Assembly (NCBI GenBank): GCA_024402715.1
Contig: JAKSTF010000001.1
Span: 6,757-70,756 of the forward strand
DNA length: 64,000 nucleotides
Source: Alphaproteobacteria bacterium
Lineage (GTDB): Bacteria > Pseudomonadota > Alphaproteobacteria > Rs-D84
Direction: 5' to 3'
The stretch's first letter is position 1. Every line of letters begins with the position of its first letter. The notes beneath the pieces were generated by a model. The model saw only the letters and a list, made by a program, of their open reading frames with translations. It did no database searches and had not been told where the DNA came from. The position numbers and the translations under genes were made by a program. This document shows, in pieces, positions 12,260 through 51,872 of this stretch.

Positions 12260-12415
12260 ATAAAATATGGGGGAATAAATTATGCCATTACGTAACAGAA
12301 AAAAAGAATCCATACGGAATAATATAATTATTTGGTCTGTTATTGCCATATTAGTTATATTGATGATTATATCATTTCCAGTGACACAAAATGTAACAGA
12401 AATCGTTTTATACCC

Positions 12416-13285
12416 ATGAATTATATAGACATTTTTTTAGAGGCATTATCTGCAGAACGCGGCCGTAGTAAAAAAACATTGGAATGTTATGCGGCCGATT
12501 TAAATGCGGCCAACCTGGCCTTATCAGGTGGATTAATGAATGCATCTGATTCAGATATACAATCATATTTATCTGATTTAAACGAGGCCCCGACATCAAT
12601 CGCACGTAAGGCCAGTACACTGCGCGGATTTTATAAATTTTTGATGTTGGAAAAAATTATTACACGAAATCCTGCGGCAAATTTAGAATTACCAAAGCAT
12701 GGGCGTAATTTACCAAAATACCTGTCACCAAAGGAAATCGAAGATTTAATATCTGCAGCTGGTGATACAAAAAACAGTACGCGACTGCGTGCAATGTTAG
12801 AATTAACATACGCATCAGGCTTACGTGTGTCAGAGCTGTGCGAATTGCAATGTTCTGCGATTTTGGGTAACAAATTATTAATTCATGGCAAAGGGGCCAA
12901 AGAACGTTTTGTTCCAATGCACGATGGTGCACAAACCGCATTAGAAAAATGGATGCGATGCCGTGGGGAAACAGATTCAAAATTTGTTTTTCCATCAAAT
13001 AGCCAAAGTGGCCATATAACACGCGATGGGTTCTTTAAAATTTTAAAAAAATGTGCTGTATTATCTGGCATTTCCCCTGATCGGGTCAGTCCACACGTAT
13101 TACGTCATTCGTTTGCATCACATTTATTGGCCGGGGGGGCCAATCTGCGTGCCATCCAAACAATGTTAGGACACGAAGATATTTCGACTACACAAATTTA
13201 TACACACGTTTTGCCTGAACAATTACGTGAGACAATGCAGAACCATCACCCATTGGGAAATAAATCAAAGGCAGATAATAAATGA
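12416..13285 (+). CDS. xerD: Tyrosine recombinase XerD-like
   Basis: YASGLRVSEL, HGKGAKER, SPHVLRHSFASHLL, LGHEDISTTQIYTHV; start moved to ATG 12416. Confidence 0.85.
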   Translation: MNYIDIFLEALSAERGRSKKTLECYAADLNAANLALSGGLMNASDSDIQSYLSDLNEAPTSIARKASTLRGFYKFLMLEKIITRNPAANLELPKHGRNLPKYLSPKEIEDLISAAGDTKNSTRLRAMLELTYASGLRVSELCELQCSAILGNKLLIHGKGAKERFVPMHDGAQTALEKWMRCRGETDSKFVFPSNSQSGHITRDGFFKILKKCAVLSGISPDRVSPHVLRHSFASHLLAGGANLRAIQTMLGHEDISTTQIYTHVLPEQLRETMQNHHPLGNKSKADNK

Positions 13286-13785
13286 TACGGAAATGTGATC
13301 ACCCGGGTTGTACTAAGGCCGGCACATGTCGTGCCCCAAAATCACGTGATTTACGTGAATATTGGATGTTTTGTAAAGAACACGCGGCCGAATATAATAA
13401 AAATTGGAATTATTATGCAGATATGAGTCCCGAAGAAATCGAAGCAGATTGGGAACGTCAAACATTTGGTGCTGCATTAAAGGATAAAGAACAGGCCAAT
13501 AAAGAGCAAACCGATTACGTAAATTTTTTAAATGATTTTATTACTGGCCGCGATACATTTGATAAAATGCCCGCCAAACGTAGTTTACCCGGCCCTGTAT
13601 CCAGCGCATTTCGTTTGTTTGGCCTGTCAATTACTGCAACATGGCGTGAAATATCGGCTAAATATAGAGTATTAGCCAAACAATATCATCCAGATACGGC
13701 AATAAATAAAGAATCAGCAACAACAGAATTTGCAAAAATTACCGCGGCATATGAAACATTAAAAAAACATTTTGGTAAAAAATAA
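13282..13785 (+). CDS. J-domain protein with N-terminal Cys/His motif (alphaproteobacterial type)
   Basis: CDHPGC..RAPKSR..FCKEHAAEYNKNWNYY; C-terminal HPD J-domain. Confidence 0.88.
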   Translation: MIRKCDHPGCTKAGTCRAPKSRDLREYWMFCKEHAAEYNKNWNYYADMSPEEIEADWERQTFGAALKDKEQANKEQTDYVNFLNDFITGRDTFDKMPAKRSLPGPVSSAFRLFGLSITATWREISAKYRVLAKQYHPDTAINKESATTEFAKITAAYETLKKHFGKK

Positions 13786-13791
13786 TCTGTT

Positions 13792-15000
13792 TTACCTTTC
13801 GTGATTTTGTTTTGCCGTTATATCAGCATGACAATCATGACACAACATTAAACAATTATCTATGGTTGTTTCACCGCCATCTGAAAAAGCGACTTTATGA
13901 TGTGCCTCTAATTCTTTGATATCAAATTCACGTCCACACCTGCCCCCACATTTTTTGTTTTGGTTTTGATATGCCGCACGTTGTTGTTTTTCTGTAAACA
14001 CACGATGCCAAATTAGTGTTCTGTCACCAGATAAAACGTATTCATAGAATCCTGCTTTTTTTAAGCCATCAGGATCAATATCATACAATTCAAATAACCT
14101 TAACAATTCTTTTTCCAGTGCATCTGTATCGTAATTTTTATTATGATATTTATTATACAAAATTCCCCACGATAGACCTCGCATTTCTTTTCTGTACACT
14201 GGGAACGTTTGTTTTACCCATGATATAACCGATTTATAATAATTTATCAATTCATCGGCATTATCATCCGCCCTGTGTTTTGCCATATAATATTTTATTT
14301 CTGGGTATTCGGTTTTATCTGTATCAATTATCCACTGTAATACCAATTCCAACAAAGCCTGTCGATTGGCATCTTCACCATTTATTGATAATAAACTATG
14401 TTTGATATCATTATCATAAAAGGCAAAATTGATAGCCGGATTATTTGTTTTTTTAGAAAAATAACCTTTCGCATCTGTTAACCATACCCCAGTATAATCG
14501 GCATTTAATAATTCCTGTTCCTCCATTATTTTTCCCGCAATATTTATTGTGTGAAACCAATCAAGTTTTTCATCATCCGTACCATCACAAACATATATTT
14601 GCAATTTATAATCATCCAAAATCTGTTTTTGTTTTTCCGGCGATAAATTTTCAAATGTTTGTGTGCGTTTTCCATCAAAATTGATAGCAATCGGATTACC
14701 ATACCCATCATTATTCGTTATAAACTGACACATTGATATCGTGCGTTGTTGGCCATCAATTATTTCAAATGTTCCATCTGGATTTTTTGCCCAATACATA
14801 ACATTCAATGGTAAATTATCATATACAGACCGCATTACCCTGTCCCGATCGGTTGGTTCATAAACAAACGCCCGTTGATAAGCCGGCCGCACATTTAATT
14901 TTCCCCCAAACGCAACAACGCCATTTTCGCCATTATCACAATATCCATTTACCAAATCACGCAAAGTTAAATTATTTAACAAAGTTGCCTTCATAACCAT
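13792..15000 (-). CDS. DUF262 (GmrS/ParB-like) plus C-terminal HNH endonuclease
   Basis: PAYQRAFVY, EIIDGQQRT, FHTIN motifs; C-terminal CxxxC..EAHH..GGET..NCLMLCHDCH; RBS AAGGA before ATG 15000. Confidence 0.88.
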   Translation of the reverse strand: MVMKATLLNNLTLRDLVNGYCDNGENGVVAFGGKLNVRPAYQRAFVYEPTDRDRVMRSVYDNLPLNVMYWAKNPDGTFEIIDGQQRTISMCQFITNNDGYGNPIAINFDGKRTQTFENLSPEKQKQILDDYKLQIYVCDGTDDEKLDWFHTINIAGKIMEEQELLNADYTGVWLTDAKGYFSKKTNNPAINFAFYDNDIKHSLLSINGEDANRQALLELVLQWIIDTDKTEYPEIKYYMAKHRADDNADELINYYKSVISWVKQTFPVYRKEMRGLSWGILYNKYHNKNYDTDALEKELLRLFELYDIDPDGLKKAGFYEYVLSGDRTLIWHRVFTEKQQRAAYQNQNKKCGGRCGREFDIKELEAHHKVAFSDGGETTIDNCLMLCHDCHADITAKQNHER

Positions 15001-15020
15001 TTTTGTTTCCTTTTTATTTA

Positions 15021-15086
15021 TATCACTGTACACAGTGATAGCCATTTCACTGTATTTAATCTTTATTATCACTGTGGGGTTCACTG
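15021..15086. repeat. Cluster of five TCACTG hexamers including a perfect 9-bp inverted repeat
   Basis: TCACTG at 15023, 15047, 15069 and 15081; CAGTGA at 15033; TATCACTGT-ac-ACAGTGATA at 15021-15040. Confidence 0.85.
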
Positions 15087-16045
15087 CTAGAATTCTTTTT
15101 TCTACGAATTAGAATTCTATTATACGGGCAACTACTAATACCATTTACCGTAATAGATAAATCTGTTCTGCCACGATAATTTTTTATTATTCCTAATTCT
15201 TTAGCTGTATCTCCTGTTCCCATGCCAACAATTTCAAATTGTTCTGGATTATGCCTATCCAAAAATGTAATTGGCACCCCCATAACACCATAATAATCCA
15301 TTGGTACATCAGATGTTTTTGAAACATTTATTGCATCATAATTATCATATTTTGGATATTGATCTTCAAAACCATAATACTTTTTACCGGTCTCTATAAA
15401 TTCACTTCTCTTTGTTGTTGATAAATTTGTAAACCATCGTGTCAAACCATTAACCTTTTTTGTGATTTCATTATTATAAATAAAATTACATGGGGAATTA
15501 TACCCAAGCCAAATTTTATTATTTTTTATAAGTGGAAAAACTTCTTTATACGCAATAGCATTTTTATTACCAATAATTAAAAAATCCTTATCATATTCAA
15601 TTAACTGTGCAACATATTCACGAAATAATGAAAATGGCGGATTTGTTATTACAATATCGGCACTTTTTAATAATTCAATACATTCGGGGCTGCGAAAATC
15701 ACCGTTGCCACGCAATGGTTGTTCCATGATATCTTCACTGCATATAATTCCATCACCGGTATTGTCTTTGTCCAAAACATACATTGTTGATTTACCATCA
15801 CGCTCATAATGTGTGGCAATTACACGTTTTATACCAAACGATTCAAAATTATCGGCAAAATATTTTATAAAATTTGACTTTGGTGTCCCCATACCAATAC
15901 CAAAATGATCATCACAGTTGCAATAAATAACCTTACCTCGAAAATATTTTGCATAGTGATTTAATTCTTTTTCTATTTCATCATAACACGTGTAGAATTC
16001 ATCATCTTTCGCTTCTTTTGCGTGAAGCATAGTATGCTTTGCCAT
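15056..16045 (-). CDS. Adenine-specific DNA methyltransferase, EcoRI-methylase family
   Basis: AKDDEFYT, KVIYCNCDD, GDFRSPEC, DIVITNPPFSLFREY, MGVPITFLD. Confidence 0.92.
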   Translation of the reverse strand: MAKHTMLHAKEAKDDEFYTCYDEIEKELNHYAKYFRGKVIYCNCDDHFGIGMGTPKSNFIKYFADNFESFGIKRVIATHYERDGKSTMYVLDKDNTGDGIICSEDIMEQPLRGNGDFRSPECIELLKSADIVITNPPFSLFREYVAQLIEYDKDFLIIGNKNAIAYKEVFPLIKNNKIWLGYNSPCNFIYNNEITKKVNGLTRWFTNLSTTKRSEFIETGKKYYGFEDQYPKYDNYDAINVSKTSDVPMDYYGVMGVPITFLDRHNPEQFEIVGMGTGDTAKELGIIKNYRGRTDLSITVNGISSCPYNRILIRRKKNSSSEPHSDNKD

Positions 16046-16064: not shown

Positions 16065-16292
16065 AAAAAAAATTAACCGCCAATCAGGAATGGCGGTCGG
16101 GGTGTTAGAAAAATCAGTTTATCAATGACCCCATTGGTCTTTGGGTAAACCCTGAACATACACCAACGGCACCCCGACCATATAATCGGGATTATAACGG
16201 TGCGAAAATACACCGAATTTTCGGATTACGATGCTTTCGCACCAGATAAACAGGACTTTTCTAAGGTCCCGAACCCAATTCCCATTGGATTC
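16065..16292 (-). ncRNA. Structured 5' leader RNA, copy 1 (C4/CI-like antisense attenuator candidate) ending in an intrinsic terminator
   Basis: Homologous to 51284-51502 with covarying stems; GGGA-tetraloop hairpin at the 5' end; terminator ACCGCCA..TGGCGGT followed by a U-tract just before the MTase RBS. Confidence 0.8.
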
Positions 16293-16299
16293 AATGTTT

Positions 16300-16308
16300 A
16301 GTATACCA
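16300..16308 (-). promoter_or_regulatory. Extended -10 promoter element (TGGTATACT) for leader copy 1
   Basis: TGnTATACT lies 7 nt upstream of the conserved GAATCC start; same spacing as in copy 2. Confidence 0.5.
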
Positions 16309-16329: not shown

Positions 16330-16360
16330 AAAAAAATCCCCCTGTATTATTGGGGGATTT
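16330..16360 (-). terminator. Intrinsic terminator after trxB
   Basis: AAATCCCC..GGGGATTT stem followed by a U-tract on the minus strand. Confidence 0.7.
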
Positions 16361-16375
16361 ATTATGCATTTTTTA

Positions 16376-48533: not shown

Positions 48534-49130
48534 TTATATTTCATATACAAATATTTGGTGCGGGTATTTTATTCCGCGATATTTTGTCCAACCGGACTTC
48601 AGTTTAATTACACGCACAGGTTGTAAATCCGGTATTTCAAAATCCATAGAAATTATCACATTTATTTTATTTTTATATTTTGCCAAACATTTGGTTATAT
48701 CTGGACCCAAATAAGCAACTGCAATGTCATATTTTTTATTTGTATGTTCTAAATATTTAAATACATCCCCCCAATGCGTTCGCACGGGCAATACAAAAAA
48801 TAAATGATCTAATACGGTTGAAACAAATGCTGTAAACGGCATATTTTCCACAGCATCAACGTTACAATTACAATGTCGTGCAATATAACGGGCCGCCCCC
48901 CCAAAACCAGAACCAGCTTCAATAATATTTTTTGTATTTGGATAATGCATTTTAATTTCTTTGACCAGGGTCCTGCGTAATTTAGAAACACTGGGAACAA
49001 ATGGCGGTTGATGACGCACATTGGCACAAATAAAATATTCCAAAAATTTCAATCCTAGATATAAATCTAAGAAAAAGAAACTGATTAATAAAATATATAT
49101 AAATGTTACCATATGGTATATTATTAACAT
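48534..49130 (-). CDS. Membrane-anchored class I SAM-dependent methyltransferase
   Basis: N-terminal TM, PPFVPS, IIEAGSGFG motif I, AVEN, AVAYL. Confidence 0.75.
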   Translation of the reverse strand: MLIIYHMVTFIYILLISFFFLDLYLGLKFLEYFICANVRHQPPFVPSVSKLRRTLVKEIKMHYPNTKNIIEAGSGFGGAARYIARHCNCNVDAVENMPFTAFVSTVLDHLFFVLPVRTHWGDVFKYLEHTNKKYDIAVAYLGPDITKCLAKYKNKINVIISMDFEIPDLQPVRVIKLKSGWTKYRGIKYPHQIFVYEI

Positions 49131-49202
49131 AATCCAATTAATAAATTCAAGAGATAAAACACCAATTTTTTCAATTCGAATTGATATAGCTAATACAAAC
49201 CA

Positions 49203-50267
49203 TTAACTATTTACCATATTTTTTATCATAAATTCTAATCCACAACCATTTACAAAATAATTATTGGGATATCTTTTCAAATTTTGTAATATATGCGAAT
49301 ATTGATGTTCGTGTTTGTTTTTAGTATTTCCTGTTGTAATATCAGAATCCATATAATCAGATATATCAATAGTATTAAATTCATTATCAATATTTGATAT
49401 ATTGTTATCTGCTGCTAATGCTTTAATAAAATTCCCCTGTAAGCACGAAACATAGTGTATATTTGGCTGTTCTTCTGTTTGATTTATAAAATTTATAATC
49501 TCATTTATCGCTTCATTTTGACTGCCCCCATCACCATTTGTCATTTTATGTTCAATAATAAAAAATTCATTGTTACATTTTAACAGTAAATCTGGATATT
49601 TATTATCACGAGCTGTGGCAAAAATAAATTTAATATTTTTATATTTTATAAAAGATTTAAATAATTGCTTACCATCCTTATCAGGCAAAATATAACACCT
49701 GGGAGCTGATAATAAATTTTCAAGCGTTTCTGTTTTTTTAAATCCCAATGAGGATATAACTGTTTCAACTTTTTGAATACCAGTTTTTCCATTCCGCCTT
49801 GCCGACGCTACATCCGACATAACCTGTAATATTTGGTCAGAATATCCATAAGATAAATACATATCGTGTCTATTTGTTAAATACATATCTAGTATCTGTG
49901 TTAACAAATCTATCTTGTCATCAAGCGTCATTTGTTTTTGTTCAGTTTGATATGCCGAATACGAGTATTTTAATACCTGAAAATATACGCAGAATGCTGA
50001 ATAATTTATCAATTTAACATTATCAAGTATTTCAATAATTTCTAATATTATTTTTCGTATTGAATTATCGTGTTTATAATCATTTTGAGAGCATAATACT
50101 TTATATGCGGTTATCAATTCAACCAGTCTATTATTGGCAATTTGTAATTCTTTCGGTTGCAATTCGCTGTTTTTTGAAACGACCTCTACACCCGCAGGAT
50201 TAGAAAAATCTATAATTTTATCAGCATTATATAAACTATACTTAAAATATTCTATATTAGGTCGCAT
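49203..50267 (-). CDS. Putative Type II restriction endonuclease (PD-(D/E)xK)
   Basis: YPDLLLK..IIEHK catalytic-like motif; overlaps the upstream MTase by 16 bp; very AT-rich. Confidence 0.7.
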   Translation of the reverse strand: MRPNIEYFKYSLYNADKIIDFSNPAGVEVVSKNSELQPKELQIANNRLVELITAYKVLCSQNDYKHDNSIRKIILEIIEILDNVKLINYSAFCVYFQVLKYSYSAYQTEQKQMTLDDKIDLLTQILDMYLTNRHDMYLSYGYSDQILQVMSDVASARRNGKTGIQKVETVISSLGFKKTETLENLLSAPRCYILPDKDGKQLFKSFIKYKNIKFIFATARDNKYPDLLLKCNNEFFIIEHKMTNGDGGSQNEAINEIINFINQTEEQPNIHYVSCLQGNFIKALAADNNISNIDNEFNTIDISDYMDSDITTGNTKNKHEHQYSHILQNLKRYPNNYFVNGCGLEFMIKNMVNS

Positions 50268-51268
50268 ATTTCAGTCCCTTCTTTTTGCATTAAATCGTCA
50301 TATACATTTTCCAAAATTGCTCGAACCAATCTAAAATCTATCCTTCGACGCCGAATACCACTTTTTGTATTCCCTTTAAATGCTGTTAATGCTAAATCTG
50401 CCGATTTTTCACGAATTTCTTGAATTTTATTATTTAAATTCTTTATAAATTTACATTTTAAATTTTCTGGAACATCCATATTTATTAAAGTGATATGTCT
50501 AGAAGATACTTTTATATTGTTTTCCCAGTCATAGTTCATATCATCTTTTAAAGCGAAACATATTTTATTTTTATCATTGCTGCTATCAACAGCACGCAAT
50601 CCCAACCATCCATTTAAATCATTAAATGTGATTTTGATATTATTTTTCGGCTCTAAACGAGAATTATAAACATCATCCAAAGTAGATATTAATGTATCAT
50701 TTTTATAAATCTTTATTTCTTTTTGACTTTTAGGGTTTCCATCAAAACACACAACACAAACCGGTGTTTCTGTATCTATGAATGGATTTTCTTCTAACAC
50801 TGTTATGGAATGTAATAAGTTCTTATGTAAAAAACTCGAATTGATAAAACTTTCTGGGATTATTGCTATCACGTATTTTTGTGCTTTCAGCATATTTTCC
50901 AAAGCCAACAAATAAACATCGTCGTAAATCGTATTTTGAAAATATTTTGATAAATCTATTTTTTTTCTAGAAGCAGATTGTTTTGCAAGATATGGTGGAT
51001 TTGTTATTATTATAGCATTTTTTATGTATGGTATTTTTTCAAGGCTATCGTTATGTTGCCATCCAAATTGGTCATCTATATCTAGACCTGTCATTGTAAA
51101 ATTAATTGGATTCAAAGCACTAACGGTTTTCAATAATTCACCAGTTCCCGCAAAGGGGTCATATATCACATTGCATTTACTTTCATATATAAAATTTTCA
51201 ATGTGTTTTTTTAACCACAAAGGATTAACTGTAAAAAATTGTCCTAATTCTGTCTTTTTATTCGCCAT
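50252..51268 (-). CDS. Amino (N6-adenine type) DNA methyltransferase
   Basis: LGQFFT (motif X), YDPFAGTG (motif I), IITNPPY (motif IV). Confidence 0.88.
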   Translation of the reverse strand: MANKKTELGQFFTVNPLWLKKHIENFIYESKCNVIYDPFAGTGELLKTVSALNPINFTMTGLDIDDQFGWQHNDSLEKIPYIKNAIIITNPPYLAKQSASRKKIDLSKYFQNTIYDDVYLLALENMLKAQKYVIAIIPESFINSSFLHKNLLHSITVLEENPFIDTETPVCVVCFDGNPKSQKEIKIYKNDTLISTLDDVYNSRLEPKNNIKITFNDLNGWLGLRAVDSSNDKNKICFALKDDMNYDWENNIKVSSRHITLINMDVPENLKCKFIKNLNNKIQEIREKSADLALTAFKGNTKSGIRRRRIDFRLVRAILENVYDDLMQKEGTEICDLI

Positions 51269-51283
51269 GACTAAAATCTTTGT

Positions 51284-51502
51284 AAAAAAACCGCCCCAAT
51301 AGAGAGCGGTCGGGTATCTTCAAGGTCATATAGCGAATGACTTCCGTTGCCTTCGGACAAAATCCTATTGTATAACAACAGATAACCCGACCATTAGTCA
51401 GGCATTAACGATGCGAATGCATCATTTACGAAATAGATTACGATGCAATTCGCACCGCGCTATATGGGTCTTGAAAACCCGAAACCAATTCCCATTGGAT
51501 TC
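51284..51502 (-). ncRNA. Structured 5' leader RNA, copy 2 (C4/CI-like antisense attenuator candidate) ending in an intrinsic terminator
   Basis: Homologous to 16065-16292; same stems built from different sequence; terminator CCGCTC..GGGCGG followed by U7, 15 nt before the MTase ATG. Confidence 0.8.
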
Positions 51503-51509
51503 AGTAATT

Positions 51510-51537
51510 ATTTTACATCAAACAGTTATAAAATCAA
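51510..51537 (-). promoter_or_regulatory. Promoter for leader copy 2
   Basis: TTGATT-16 bp-TAAAAT, 7 nt before the conserved GAATCC. Confidence 0.5.
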
Positions 51538-51679: not shown

Positions 51680-51765
51680 TGGTGGGAGTGGTAGGAGTCG
51701 AACCTACTCAAGCATAGCTAACAGATTTACAGTCTGCCCCGGCTCTCCGACTCCGGCGCACGCCC
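51680..51765 (-). tRNA. tRNA-Tyr (GTA)
   Basis: GCAGA-CTGTAAA-TCTGT anticodon arm, long variable arm, GGTTCGACTCC T-arm, encoded ACCA; one C-U mismatch in the acceptor stem. Confidence 0.95.
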
Positions 51766-51797: not shown

Positions 51798-51872
51798 TGG
51801 TGCGGGCAGCGGGAATCGAACCCGCATTTCAAGCTTGGAAGGCTTGCATACTAGCCTTTGTACTATGCCCGC
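51798..51872 (-). tRNA. tRNA-Gly (TCC)
   Basis: GCGGGCA/TGCCCGC acceptor stem, CTTCCAA anticodon loop, GGTTCGATTCC T-arm, encoded CCA. Confidence 0.96.

Follow-up and report, generated by a model that had tools for sequence, protein, structure and literature searches.

Two restriction-modification (R-M) operons of different families in one small alphaproteobacterial genome are preceded by what looks like the same RNA leader, raising the question of what such a leader does and whether it belongs to R-M systems at all. The window that we analysed is a stretch of 64,000 nucleotides (nt) from an Alphaproteobacteria bacterium of the GTDB lineage Rs-D84 (assembly GCA_024402715.1, contig JAKSTF010000001.1, positions 6,757 to 70,756; positions below are those of the window unless a contig is named). 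It holds two homologous minus-strand elements of ~220 nt each, copy 1 at 16292-16065 and copy 2 at 51502-51284, which an original prediction, made from the letters alone, had described as a ~225-nt structured leader shared by two R-M operons. We propose, with a probability of roughly 0.6, that each element is the 5' leader of its operon and would act as a two-state RNA switch organised like the c4 locus of phage P1. The family to which both copies belong leads many kinds of accessory genes, R-M systems among them.

Two homologous leaders with their own promoters and terminators

Both the homology and the strong fold of the two leaders were borne out. Against a covariance model of the six copies in the source genome, copies 1 and 2 score 223.5 and 174.4 bits, which excludes chance resemblance, and both are far more stable than dinucleotide shuffles (z = -7.47 and -7.60; 0 of 200 shuffles equally stable). 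The blocks and stems that had been named, including the GNRA-type 5' hairpin, the long-range stems and the inner stems, were all found on the minus strand. The long-range stems are TTAGAAAA/TTTTCTAA and GTTTATC/GATAAAC in copy 1, and TTCAAG/CTTGAA and CATATAGCG/CGCTATATG in copy 2.

Each copy carries the predicted -10 box 7 nt ahead of the first G (TATACT at 16305-16300 in copy 1 and TAAAAT at 51515-51510 in copy 2), and this spacing to the start site (+1) is constant across 35 aligned copies. The terminator also lies where it had been placed, under 20 nt from the methyltransferase ATG, with 16 nt between the end of the T-run and the ATG in copy 1 and ~13-15 nt in copy 2. Just ahead of the copy 1 promoter, a separate strong terminator, AAATCCCCC...GGGGGATTTTTTT (16338-16365, minus strand), ends an upstream thioredoxin-reductase-like gene and thus insulates the copy 1 leader from upstream read-through.

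Two mutually exclusive folds

Compensatory changes in the stems, both in the six source-genome copies and in larger alignments, agree with the earlier observation that pairing is kept between the conserved blocks. In an alignment of 67 sequences, 94.4% of cells are paired compared with 72.3% in shuffles, and the covariation that had been called for appears as double changes at 62 of the 68 pairs; none of 500 shuffles reached this level of pairing, and shifted pairing registers also fall far short. A second, independent set of 59 sequences from other taxa gives 92.9% compared with 70.6%, with GGTCGGGGWG and the switch strand fixed by the search pattern and this set therefore uninformative on covariation of those two strands. 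In two alignments, G-U cells are far more frequent than A-C cells (478 vs 84 and 286 vs 56), which identifies the folding strand as the sense-strand RNA.

Two further helices were absent from the model used for alignment. The pseudoknot, which joins the loop of the small 5' hairpin to the stretch just before the 3' conserved block, has three variable pairs with 31-37 double changes each. The 10-bp closing helix GGTCGGGGAG:CTCCCCGACC is 94.9% paired with double changes at 8 of its 10 pairs, and pairing of the closing stem ranges from 94.9 to 99.8%, again with compensatory changes. GGTCGGGGAG doubles as the 3' arm of P4, itself 91.6% paired (double changes at 7 of 10 pairs; U-G wobble frequent at 223:243), and the last four nt of CTCCCCGACC double as the base of the terminator stem beside the U-tract. 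Because the closing helix and the P4/terminator base use the same nucleotides, the closed fold, which contains P4, and a C4-like fold, which contains the closing helix, are mutually exclusive. The stem of hairpin 2, which is possible in the C4-like fold only, covaries at 4 of 5 pairs in the wider family, and hairpin 1 (P5) at 8 of 8. The alignments show, at the level of predicted structure, two folds that exclude each other and that are each supported by covariation.

The output of the element differs between groups of hosts. Copies of the small-genome group end in terminators; elsewhere most copies lack one, and in this wider family AACTCCCC lies opposite a Shine-Dalgarno sequence of the GGGGAG(TT) type further downstream, with two hairpins between them. 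The same comparison shows, as far as predicted pairing can, a promoter, and a terminator or Shine-Dalgarno partner that the closed fold alone would permit. Stretches complementary to AACTCCCC over at least 6 nt lie downstream in 24 of 81 elements compared with 12% in shuffled tails, a modest enrichment. Of the two intervening hairpins of the wider family, one, GCGGGGGCGYACCGC, is an addition to the core and strongly conserved; it stands 30-60 nt beyond the switch strand, between the ACCA tail and the Shine-Dalgarno sequence (L168, L141, L157, L176, L190, L212 and many other loci), in Alphaproteobacteria and Acidobacteria alike.

Likeness to phage P1 c4 and other known RNAs

In the annotated phage P1 record the order is promoter P1c4, a1, b1, the 77-nt C4 RNA, a2, b2 and icd; in its sequence, b' lies in the loop of the second C4 hairpin and a' in the single strand ahead of the closing 3' strand. 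The leaders share with this P1/P7 c4 locus (immI; C4, RF01695) a promoter followed by a 5'-terminal hairpin, a1, b1, a further hairpin and then a domain of ~77-95 nt that begins ~113 nt from the start site in both. In the leader family, as in C4, the domain is closed by a long stem that encloses hairpin 1, a hairpin 2 whose loop holds b', and a single-stranded a' ahead of the 3' strand, and it ends in an ACC(A) tail. Upstream of it, a1 and b1 find their complements in a' and b' in the nested order of P1, with a1:a' (the pseudoknot of the leader) outside b1:b' (its P2), and both helices covary strongly. The NCCA tail after the closing stem was seen in 40 of 59 copies from the wider family and in 18 of 56 from small genomes.

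The likeness has limits. P1 has a2/b2 targets at the ribosome binding site of the next gene, whereas the leader family has none beyond chance, and its output instead runs through the 3' strand of the closing stem, as terminator base or anti-Shine-Dalgarno. Pairing in cis is predicted to dominate in the leaders, in contrast to P1, in which the C4 fold is the minimum free energy (MFE) structure. Finally, the leaders do not stand in an icd/ant immunity context, and their Rfam C4 score is sub-threshold. We take P1 C4 to be matured by RNase P.

The Rfam family that scores best on the 3' domain is sRNA-Xcc1 (RF02221). In an E-value scan, a copy from Novosphingopyxis scored 22.7 bits against sRNA-Xcc1 (gathering 53) and 18.8 bits against C4 (gathering 45), and both alignments place the 10-bp helix on the closing stem, P5 on hairpin 1, and the P2 3' strand in the loop of the second hairpin, and also cover the GGUUU..AAC stretch and the CACC tail. 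When five genomes were scanned with the sRNA-Xcc1 model, one family element was picked in each, at 23.6-27.8 bits; in the source genome this was the type I leader (C19:2726-2817). The C4 model made fewer picks in the same genomes (best 28.4 bits compared with gathering 45) and none in the source genome. The leaders differ from sRNA-Xcc1 in scoring below its gathering threshold, and the modelled family has no counterpart of their ~110-nt 5' half or of their terminator or Shine-Dalgarno output. Like the leader family, sRNA-Xcc1 is presumably carried by mobile elements (integron, transposon, plasmid). Separately, four sub-threshold sRNA-Xcc1 matches of 30-36 bits lie outside the hits listed for the family model (G107 C6:58907-58992 and C36:105522-105609; G226 C11:35004-35093 and C6:111814-111902), and these may be intermediates between sRNA-Xcc1 and the leader family.

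The element had been put forward as one not recognised as described. At gathering thresholds, the Rfam scan that had been suggested found only tRNAs in the window, 12 relatives and 16 named genomes, and a search of the literature on R-M RNA leaders, alphaproteobacterial and acidobacterial motifs, Candidatus Enterousia and Frpo found no description of the family. The kind is nevertheless not wholly unrecognised, given the sub-threshold sRNA-Xcc1/C4 likeness in the 3' half of relatives and a layout that mirrors P1 a1-b1-c4; C4 and IsrK were among the families that the original prediction had named for the scan. The available portions of the Breaker-lab motif surveys hold no matching passage, and c4-a1b1 (2010, without an Rfam number) and c4-2 (2017), compared by name only, may bear on novelty. 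We regard the family, from its sequence and predicted structure, as probably a C4/IsrK-like leader uncatalogued in Rfam that contains its own attenuator or Shine-Dalgarno output and has multiplied massively in one lineage.

IsrK of the Salmonella Gifsy-1 prophage offers a second comparison. The published account describes a promoter, a structured small RNA and a leaky intrinsic terminator directly ahead of an open reading frame (ORF), with the long transcript in an inactive fold A or an active fold B and a short form that activates in trans by self-competition (PMC4825925). The leaders have the same layout of promoter, small RNA, terminator and ORF on one predicted transcript, with alternative inactive and active folds. 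They differ in that the cis partner of IsrK lies downstream, in orf45, whereas that of the leaders lies upstream (a1/b1), and activation in trans, shown for IsrK in the same account, would hold for the leaders by analogy. Scans of the window copies and of a relative gave no match to Rfam IsrK. The leaders also resemble attenuators and riboswitch platforms, in which a four-strand chain (1:2, 2:3, 3:4) chooses between terminator or sequestor and antiterminator, but they have no leader peptide or known ligand and their gene content is not metabolic. Unlike R-M systems governed by a controller (C) protein, neither window locus has a helix-turn-helix among its scanned ORFs, in line with the earlier statement that no C protein is encoded (Pfam scan of operon ORFs; three listed ORFs of at least 60 amino acids (aa) per locus).

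A proposed switch

From the start site, the parts of the proposed switch would be P0; a short hairpin with a1 in its loop; b1; the variable P3; a decoy strand, the 5' arm of P4; and a C4/sRNA-Xcc1-like domain of ~90 nt. In the closed fold, a1:a' would form the pseudoknot and b1:b' would form P2, while the decoy holds the 5' strand of the closing stem through P4. The 3' strand of the closing stem would then be free to complete the terminator in the source genome, or would pair with the Shine-Dalgarno sequence in most other hosts, and in either case the operon would be off. In the C4-like fold the closing stem would form, removing four terminator base pairs beside the U-tract or freeing the Shine-Dalgarno sequence, and the operon would be on. 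At the window operons, the leader would gate transcription of methyltransferase and nuclease together.

For each of the six source-genome copies, nearest-neighbour estimates that treat the pseudoknot as nested favour the closed fold over the forced open fold by 9-14 kcal/mol. The closed fold is thus probably the default state, and opening would turn the operon on. By analogy with short IsrK, the trigger might be RNA-RNA competition, in which a C4-like domain with the same address, either free or released by processing, takes up a1/b1 and lets go the cis domain; a ligand or a protein could serve instead. One pair of paralogous copies in the source genome (C1 and C45) differs at 11 of 33 positions in address segments, 7 of 16 in P5 and 21 of 181 elsewhere. 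Since these differences are spread over all variable stems and not over the address alone, the comparison does not discriminate between action in trans and in cis.

The need for a factor that opens so stable a fold is also what speaks for a protein-set structure, in which a host or element protein (an antiterminator, a translational repressor, RNase P or another RNase) binds and the RNA senses nothing. Additionally, the closing stem resembles an acceptor stem and is followed by an NCCA tail, which suggests that RNase P recognises it, and a protein could bind the conserved GCGGGGGCGYACCGC hairpin found in the 3' extension of wider-family copies. However, no candidate protein co-occurred in the neighbourhoods inspected, and in a family found in Alphaproteobacteria, Acidobacteria and plasmids a dedicated partner would have to travel along or be universal. 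We consider a switch set by protein alone rather improbable.

A more far-reaching version of the RNA-competition model would be a self-addressed, RNA-only bistable switch. Occasional read-through or processing would free the C4-like domain, whose a'/b' loops would bind the a1/b1 of sibling transcripts from that one locus only, push them into the open fold and lock the locus on; dozens of orthogonal switches per ~1-Mb genome would then give phase variation without DNA change and, on plasmids, could time establishment genes after transfer. We offer this as speculation, and think it unlikely. Were it true, surface proteins, glycosyltransferases, regulators and R-M systems would each be open to independent phase variation.

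Several observations weigh against a C4-like two-state switch. With the closed fold 9-14 kcal/mol more stable, opening needs a driver, and since the terminated transcript contains both addresses and complements, any RNA acting in trans would have to be released by processing. Between b1 and its own downstream region the longest shared word averages 4.55 nt, compared with 4.59 nt for non-cognate regions, and thus gives no downstream a2/b2-type repeat, in a test made with b1 since a1 is too short. The enrichment of complements to the Shine-Dalgarno sequence may partly reflect ordinary Shine-Dalgarno content. No copy scanned matches any Rfam family at gathering score; E-value scans of both window copies returned noise only, with no C4 or sRNA-Xcc1 match at E < 10; and the sRNA-Xcc1 model picks only 1 of the 6 source-genome copies. 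Run on the complete P1 record, a model of the 3' domain gave no hit and, with filters off, scored c4 at 3.7 bits (E 1.5), below a spurious hit. Thus, homology with P1 rests on architecture and not on score.

Genes behind the leaders

The source genome is 1.0 Mb in 63 contigs with 37% GC and 96.6% completeness, and R-M-like operons stand behind five of its six leaders: two pairs of an EcoRI-type methyltransferase with GmrSD/HNH, the NPPY operon, a type I HsdM-HsdS operon, and an Eco57I-type methyltransferase with a ResIII helicase. The sixth leads a GIY-YIG-led operon. A Pfam search found other methyltransferase-domain loci in the same genome (7 N6_Mtase places and 4 N6_N4_Mtase places), about eight of them leaderless, and the leader model has no match near these eight or so.

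Related small genomes give a different picture. From 103 elements examined, 22 were dropped (first ORF below 50 aa or start more than 60 nt away) and 81 first downstream proteins were scanned. The XRE-type helix-turn-helix families HTH_31 (9) and HTH_3 (4) were commonest, followed by outer-membrane protein beta-barrel and Opacity, GT2, LicD, RgpF and ankyrin; DNA methyltransferases came first in only 2 of 81. Most of these proteins have no Pfam family, and many begin with lipoprotein or signal peptides. Among the 66 of 82 first proteins scanned in the wider family were DUF5818 (4), HTH_3 (3), GT2 (2), BamE (2), a serine recombinase and three methyltransferase-related proteins. Plasmid copies precede small hypothetical or XRE proteins, with ParB, antirestriction, toprim, ArdC-like and type IV secretion genes nearby. 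The original prediction had called the element a portable cis-regulatory RNA dedicated to R-M expression. Its cis-acting character held up, with its own promoter, a terminator near the ATG and a place before unrelated R-M operons, but the dedication is refuted by the 2 of 81 and 3 of 66 methyltransferases downstream and by the leaderless methyltransferase loci of the source genome.

This gene content bears on whether the leader is a classical metabolite or ion riboswitch, whose closed fold, a four-way junction with pseudoknot, would be an aptamer locked by ligand through P4 such that the terminator or Shine-Dalgarno sequestor forms. The architecture resembles that of an aptamer and its junction nucleotides are highly conserved; terminator and antiterminator clearly compete, and the use of two expression platforms on one conserved core is typical of riboswitches. 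What lies downstream, however, has no metabolic theme (XRE regulators, outer-membrane proteins, lipoproteins, glycosyltransferases, methyltransferases and recombinases, most without a Pfam family). Additionally, up to 44 copies per ~1 Mb far exceed known riboswitch regulons, the patchy occurrence is tied to mobile elements, and the aptamer-like parts map one-to-one onto the a1/b1/a'/b' pairings of a C4-type locus. A riboswitch therefore seems doubtful to us. As one candidate ligand, c-di-GMP is unlikely, with no GGDEF domain found in the 96.6%-complete source genome.

Spread of the family

The covariance model of the six source-genome copies was also used to search other genomes. It found matches in 83 of the 101 related genomes, among them 59 of 60 congeners, and three near-complete congeners carry 17, 33 and 44 copies per ~1 Mb under laxer filters. 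Scanning one genome per species with an exact pattern gave at least 119 stretches. By record title, the matches listed come from Candidatus Enterousia metagenome-assembled genomes (MAGs), from many other Alphaproteobacteria (among them Sphingobium, Novosphingobium, Rhizobium, Shimia, Asticcacaulis, Xanthobacter, Tisiphia and Micavibrio), from Acidobacteriaceae (Granulicella) and from two Bacteroidota MAGs; the full model confirmed all 80 listed loci (83 matches). Sampled evenly, the class shows matches in 19 of 151 genomes, own genome included, a tally that takes in the unpublished genome G129 with its single weak match (18 of 150 without it). The element is present in 184 plasmid records (148 predicted conjugative; 57 Rhizobium, 51 Agrobacterium) and in 159 records of a second plasmid query, as well as in one phage record and 8 IMG/VR contigs. 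The search of relatives proposed at the outset has thus yielded a family common among related genomes and sparse in other Alphaproteobacteria and Acidobacteria, with plasmid copies in addition.

High copy number, and a place on 148 conjugative plasmids beside ParB, antirestriction, toprim and ArdC-like genes, would also suit a mobile DNA repeat, akin to a miniature inverted-repeat transposable element, or an Frpo-like single-stranded DNA promoter of the plasmid leading region, with the RNA structure incidental. We hold this to be very improbable. Compensatory changes occur at nearly every stem position and the loops are conserved. If the transferred plasmid strand is the template of leading-region genes, a single-stranded promoter there would fold the other strand, whereas the excess of G-U over A-C (478 vs 84) points to folding of the sense strand. 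The element also has a canonical double-stranded sigma-70 promoter at fixed distance, and it keeps a single orientation and a constant distance to the start codon downstream.

If the leaders are C4-like switches, C4-type RNAs would be a general, portable gene-control cassette, reaching beyond the antisense RNAs of phage immunity. Mobile elements and reduced-genome gut Alphaproteobacteria would have put this cassette before almost any accessory gene, here including five R-M operons, and one conserved core would drive either transcription termination or Shine-Dalgarno sequestration. The a1/b1 sites of P1, annotated as putative targets only, would gain a function in cis-locking of the C4 domain. 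For R-M biology, the leader would offer an RNA route to delay or gate methyltransferase and nuclease expression without a C protein. About 180 sequenced plasmids (Rhizobium, Agrobacterium, Methylobacterium, Paracoccus and others) carry the family, which makes these proposals testable in culturable hosts.

Features of the window and neighbouring genes

The two window operons (Table 1) are of different families, as had been stated: EcoRI_methylase with GmrSD_N/HNH behind copy 1, and an NPPY N6-methyltransferase with a PD...EHK ORF behind copy 2. The copy 2 methyltransferase has FAGTG and NPPY motifs and its ATG at 51268; the 354-aa ORF that follows contains the PD...EHK motif, and neither it nor the 198-aa ORF matched a Pfam family. 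In a relative, the strand equivalent to GGTCGGGGTG of copy 1 falls on the closing stem in the alignments to Rfam sRNA-Xcc1 and C4.

Table 1 Positions of leader parts, promoters and operons in the window
Feature	Positions	Strand	Basis or remarks
Copy 1 promoter, extended -10 TG-n-TATACT	16300..16307	-	hexamer 16305-16300; +1 G at 16292; from sequence
Copy 1 P0, 5'-terminal hairpin, GGGA loop	16271..16292	-	MFE fold; 9/9 pairs with compensatory changes (67-sequence alignment)
Copy 1 a1-like address TTAGAAAA	16257..16264	-	P1' hairpin loop, 5' strand of pseudoknot; partner 16105-16112
Copy 1 b1-like address GTTTATC, P2 5' arm	16245..16251	-	partner 16117-16123; 7/7 pairs covary in six source-genome copies and larger sets
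Copy 1 P3/P3a hairpin GGTGCGAA...GCATCGTAATC...TTCGCACC	16198..16244	-	MFE fold and alignments; dispensable in short variants of other genera
Copy 1 P4 5' arm	16186..16192	-	competes for closing-stem 5' strand; anti-antiterminator role proposed
Copy 1 GGTCGGGGTG	16170..16179	-	P4 3' arm (closed fold) or C4-like closing-stem 5' strand (open fold)
Copy 1 P5, hairpin 1 of C4-like domain	16131..16169	-	8/8 pairs covary
Copy 1 hairpin 2 region	16105..16129	-	b' GATAAAC 16117-16123 and a' TTTTCTAA 16105-16112, b1/a1 complements
Copy 1 switch strand CACCCCGACC, closing-stem 3' strand	16095..16104	-	last 4 nt are terminator-stem base
Copy 1 intrinsic terminator GACCGCCA...TGGCGGTT and T-run	16065..16098	-	fold and alignments; methyltransferase ATG at 16045
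Copy 1 operon	13792..16045	-	EcoRI-family methyltransferase 15056-16045, GmrSD_N/HNH nuclease 13792-15084; Pfam E 1.7e-106, 3.7e-17, 7.9e-11
Copy 2 promoter	51510..51537	-	-35 TTGATT 51537-51532, -10 TAAAAT 51515-51510; +1 G at 51502
Copy 2 leader	51284..51502	-	P0 51481-51502; a1-like 51470-51475; b1-like 51458-51466; closing 5' strand 51382-51391
Copy 2 leader, 3' parts		-	b' 51327-51335; a' 51319-51324; switch strand 51308-51317; terminator 51284-51309
Copy 2 operon: N6_Mtase/Eco57I 50252-51268, 354-aa ORF 49203-50267, 198-aa ORF 48534-49130	48534..51268	-	

Two tRNA genes lie right upstream of copy 2 (51683-51765 and 51801-51872, minus strand), one of them with a long variable arm (38.4 bits). 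At a congener locus (L036) a tRNA precedes the element by ~58 nt, and a tRNA gene lies within 1-3 kb at several further loci of the family; such neighbours suggest that units of leader plus gene occupy insertion spots of the island type.

The source genome has a seventh, weak match to the model of the leader (C12:7928-8034, plus strand; 22.9 bits, E 3.4e-4), which is much shorter than the rest and may be a degenerate copy. One congener (G056) has at least nine near-identical XRE-like genes of 75-78 aa (MAKLLIDANYYG...; loci L111, L117, L118, L122, L123, L125-L127 and L129), each behind a short, low-scoring leader variant of 160-175 nt and 30-50 bits, and these regulator paralogues seem to have spread together with their leader. 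A protein of ~225 aa without a Pfam family (MD/N-V/I-I-x-G-I-K...FFVSEADFQ) stands directly behind leaders in four congeners (L030, L035, L047 and L049) and is the third gene of the GIY-YIG operon of the source genome (C34:36855-39756); it may be an uncharacterised defence or nuclease-associated module. In the window, genes for a XerC/D-type tyrosine recombinase (12332-13285, plus strand) and a DnaJ-domain protein (13282-13785, plus strand) are both convergent to the end of the copy 1 operon.

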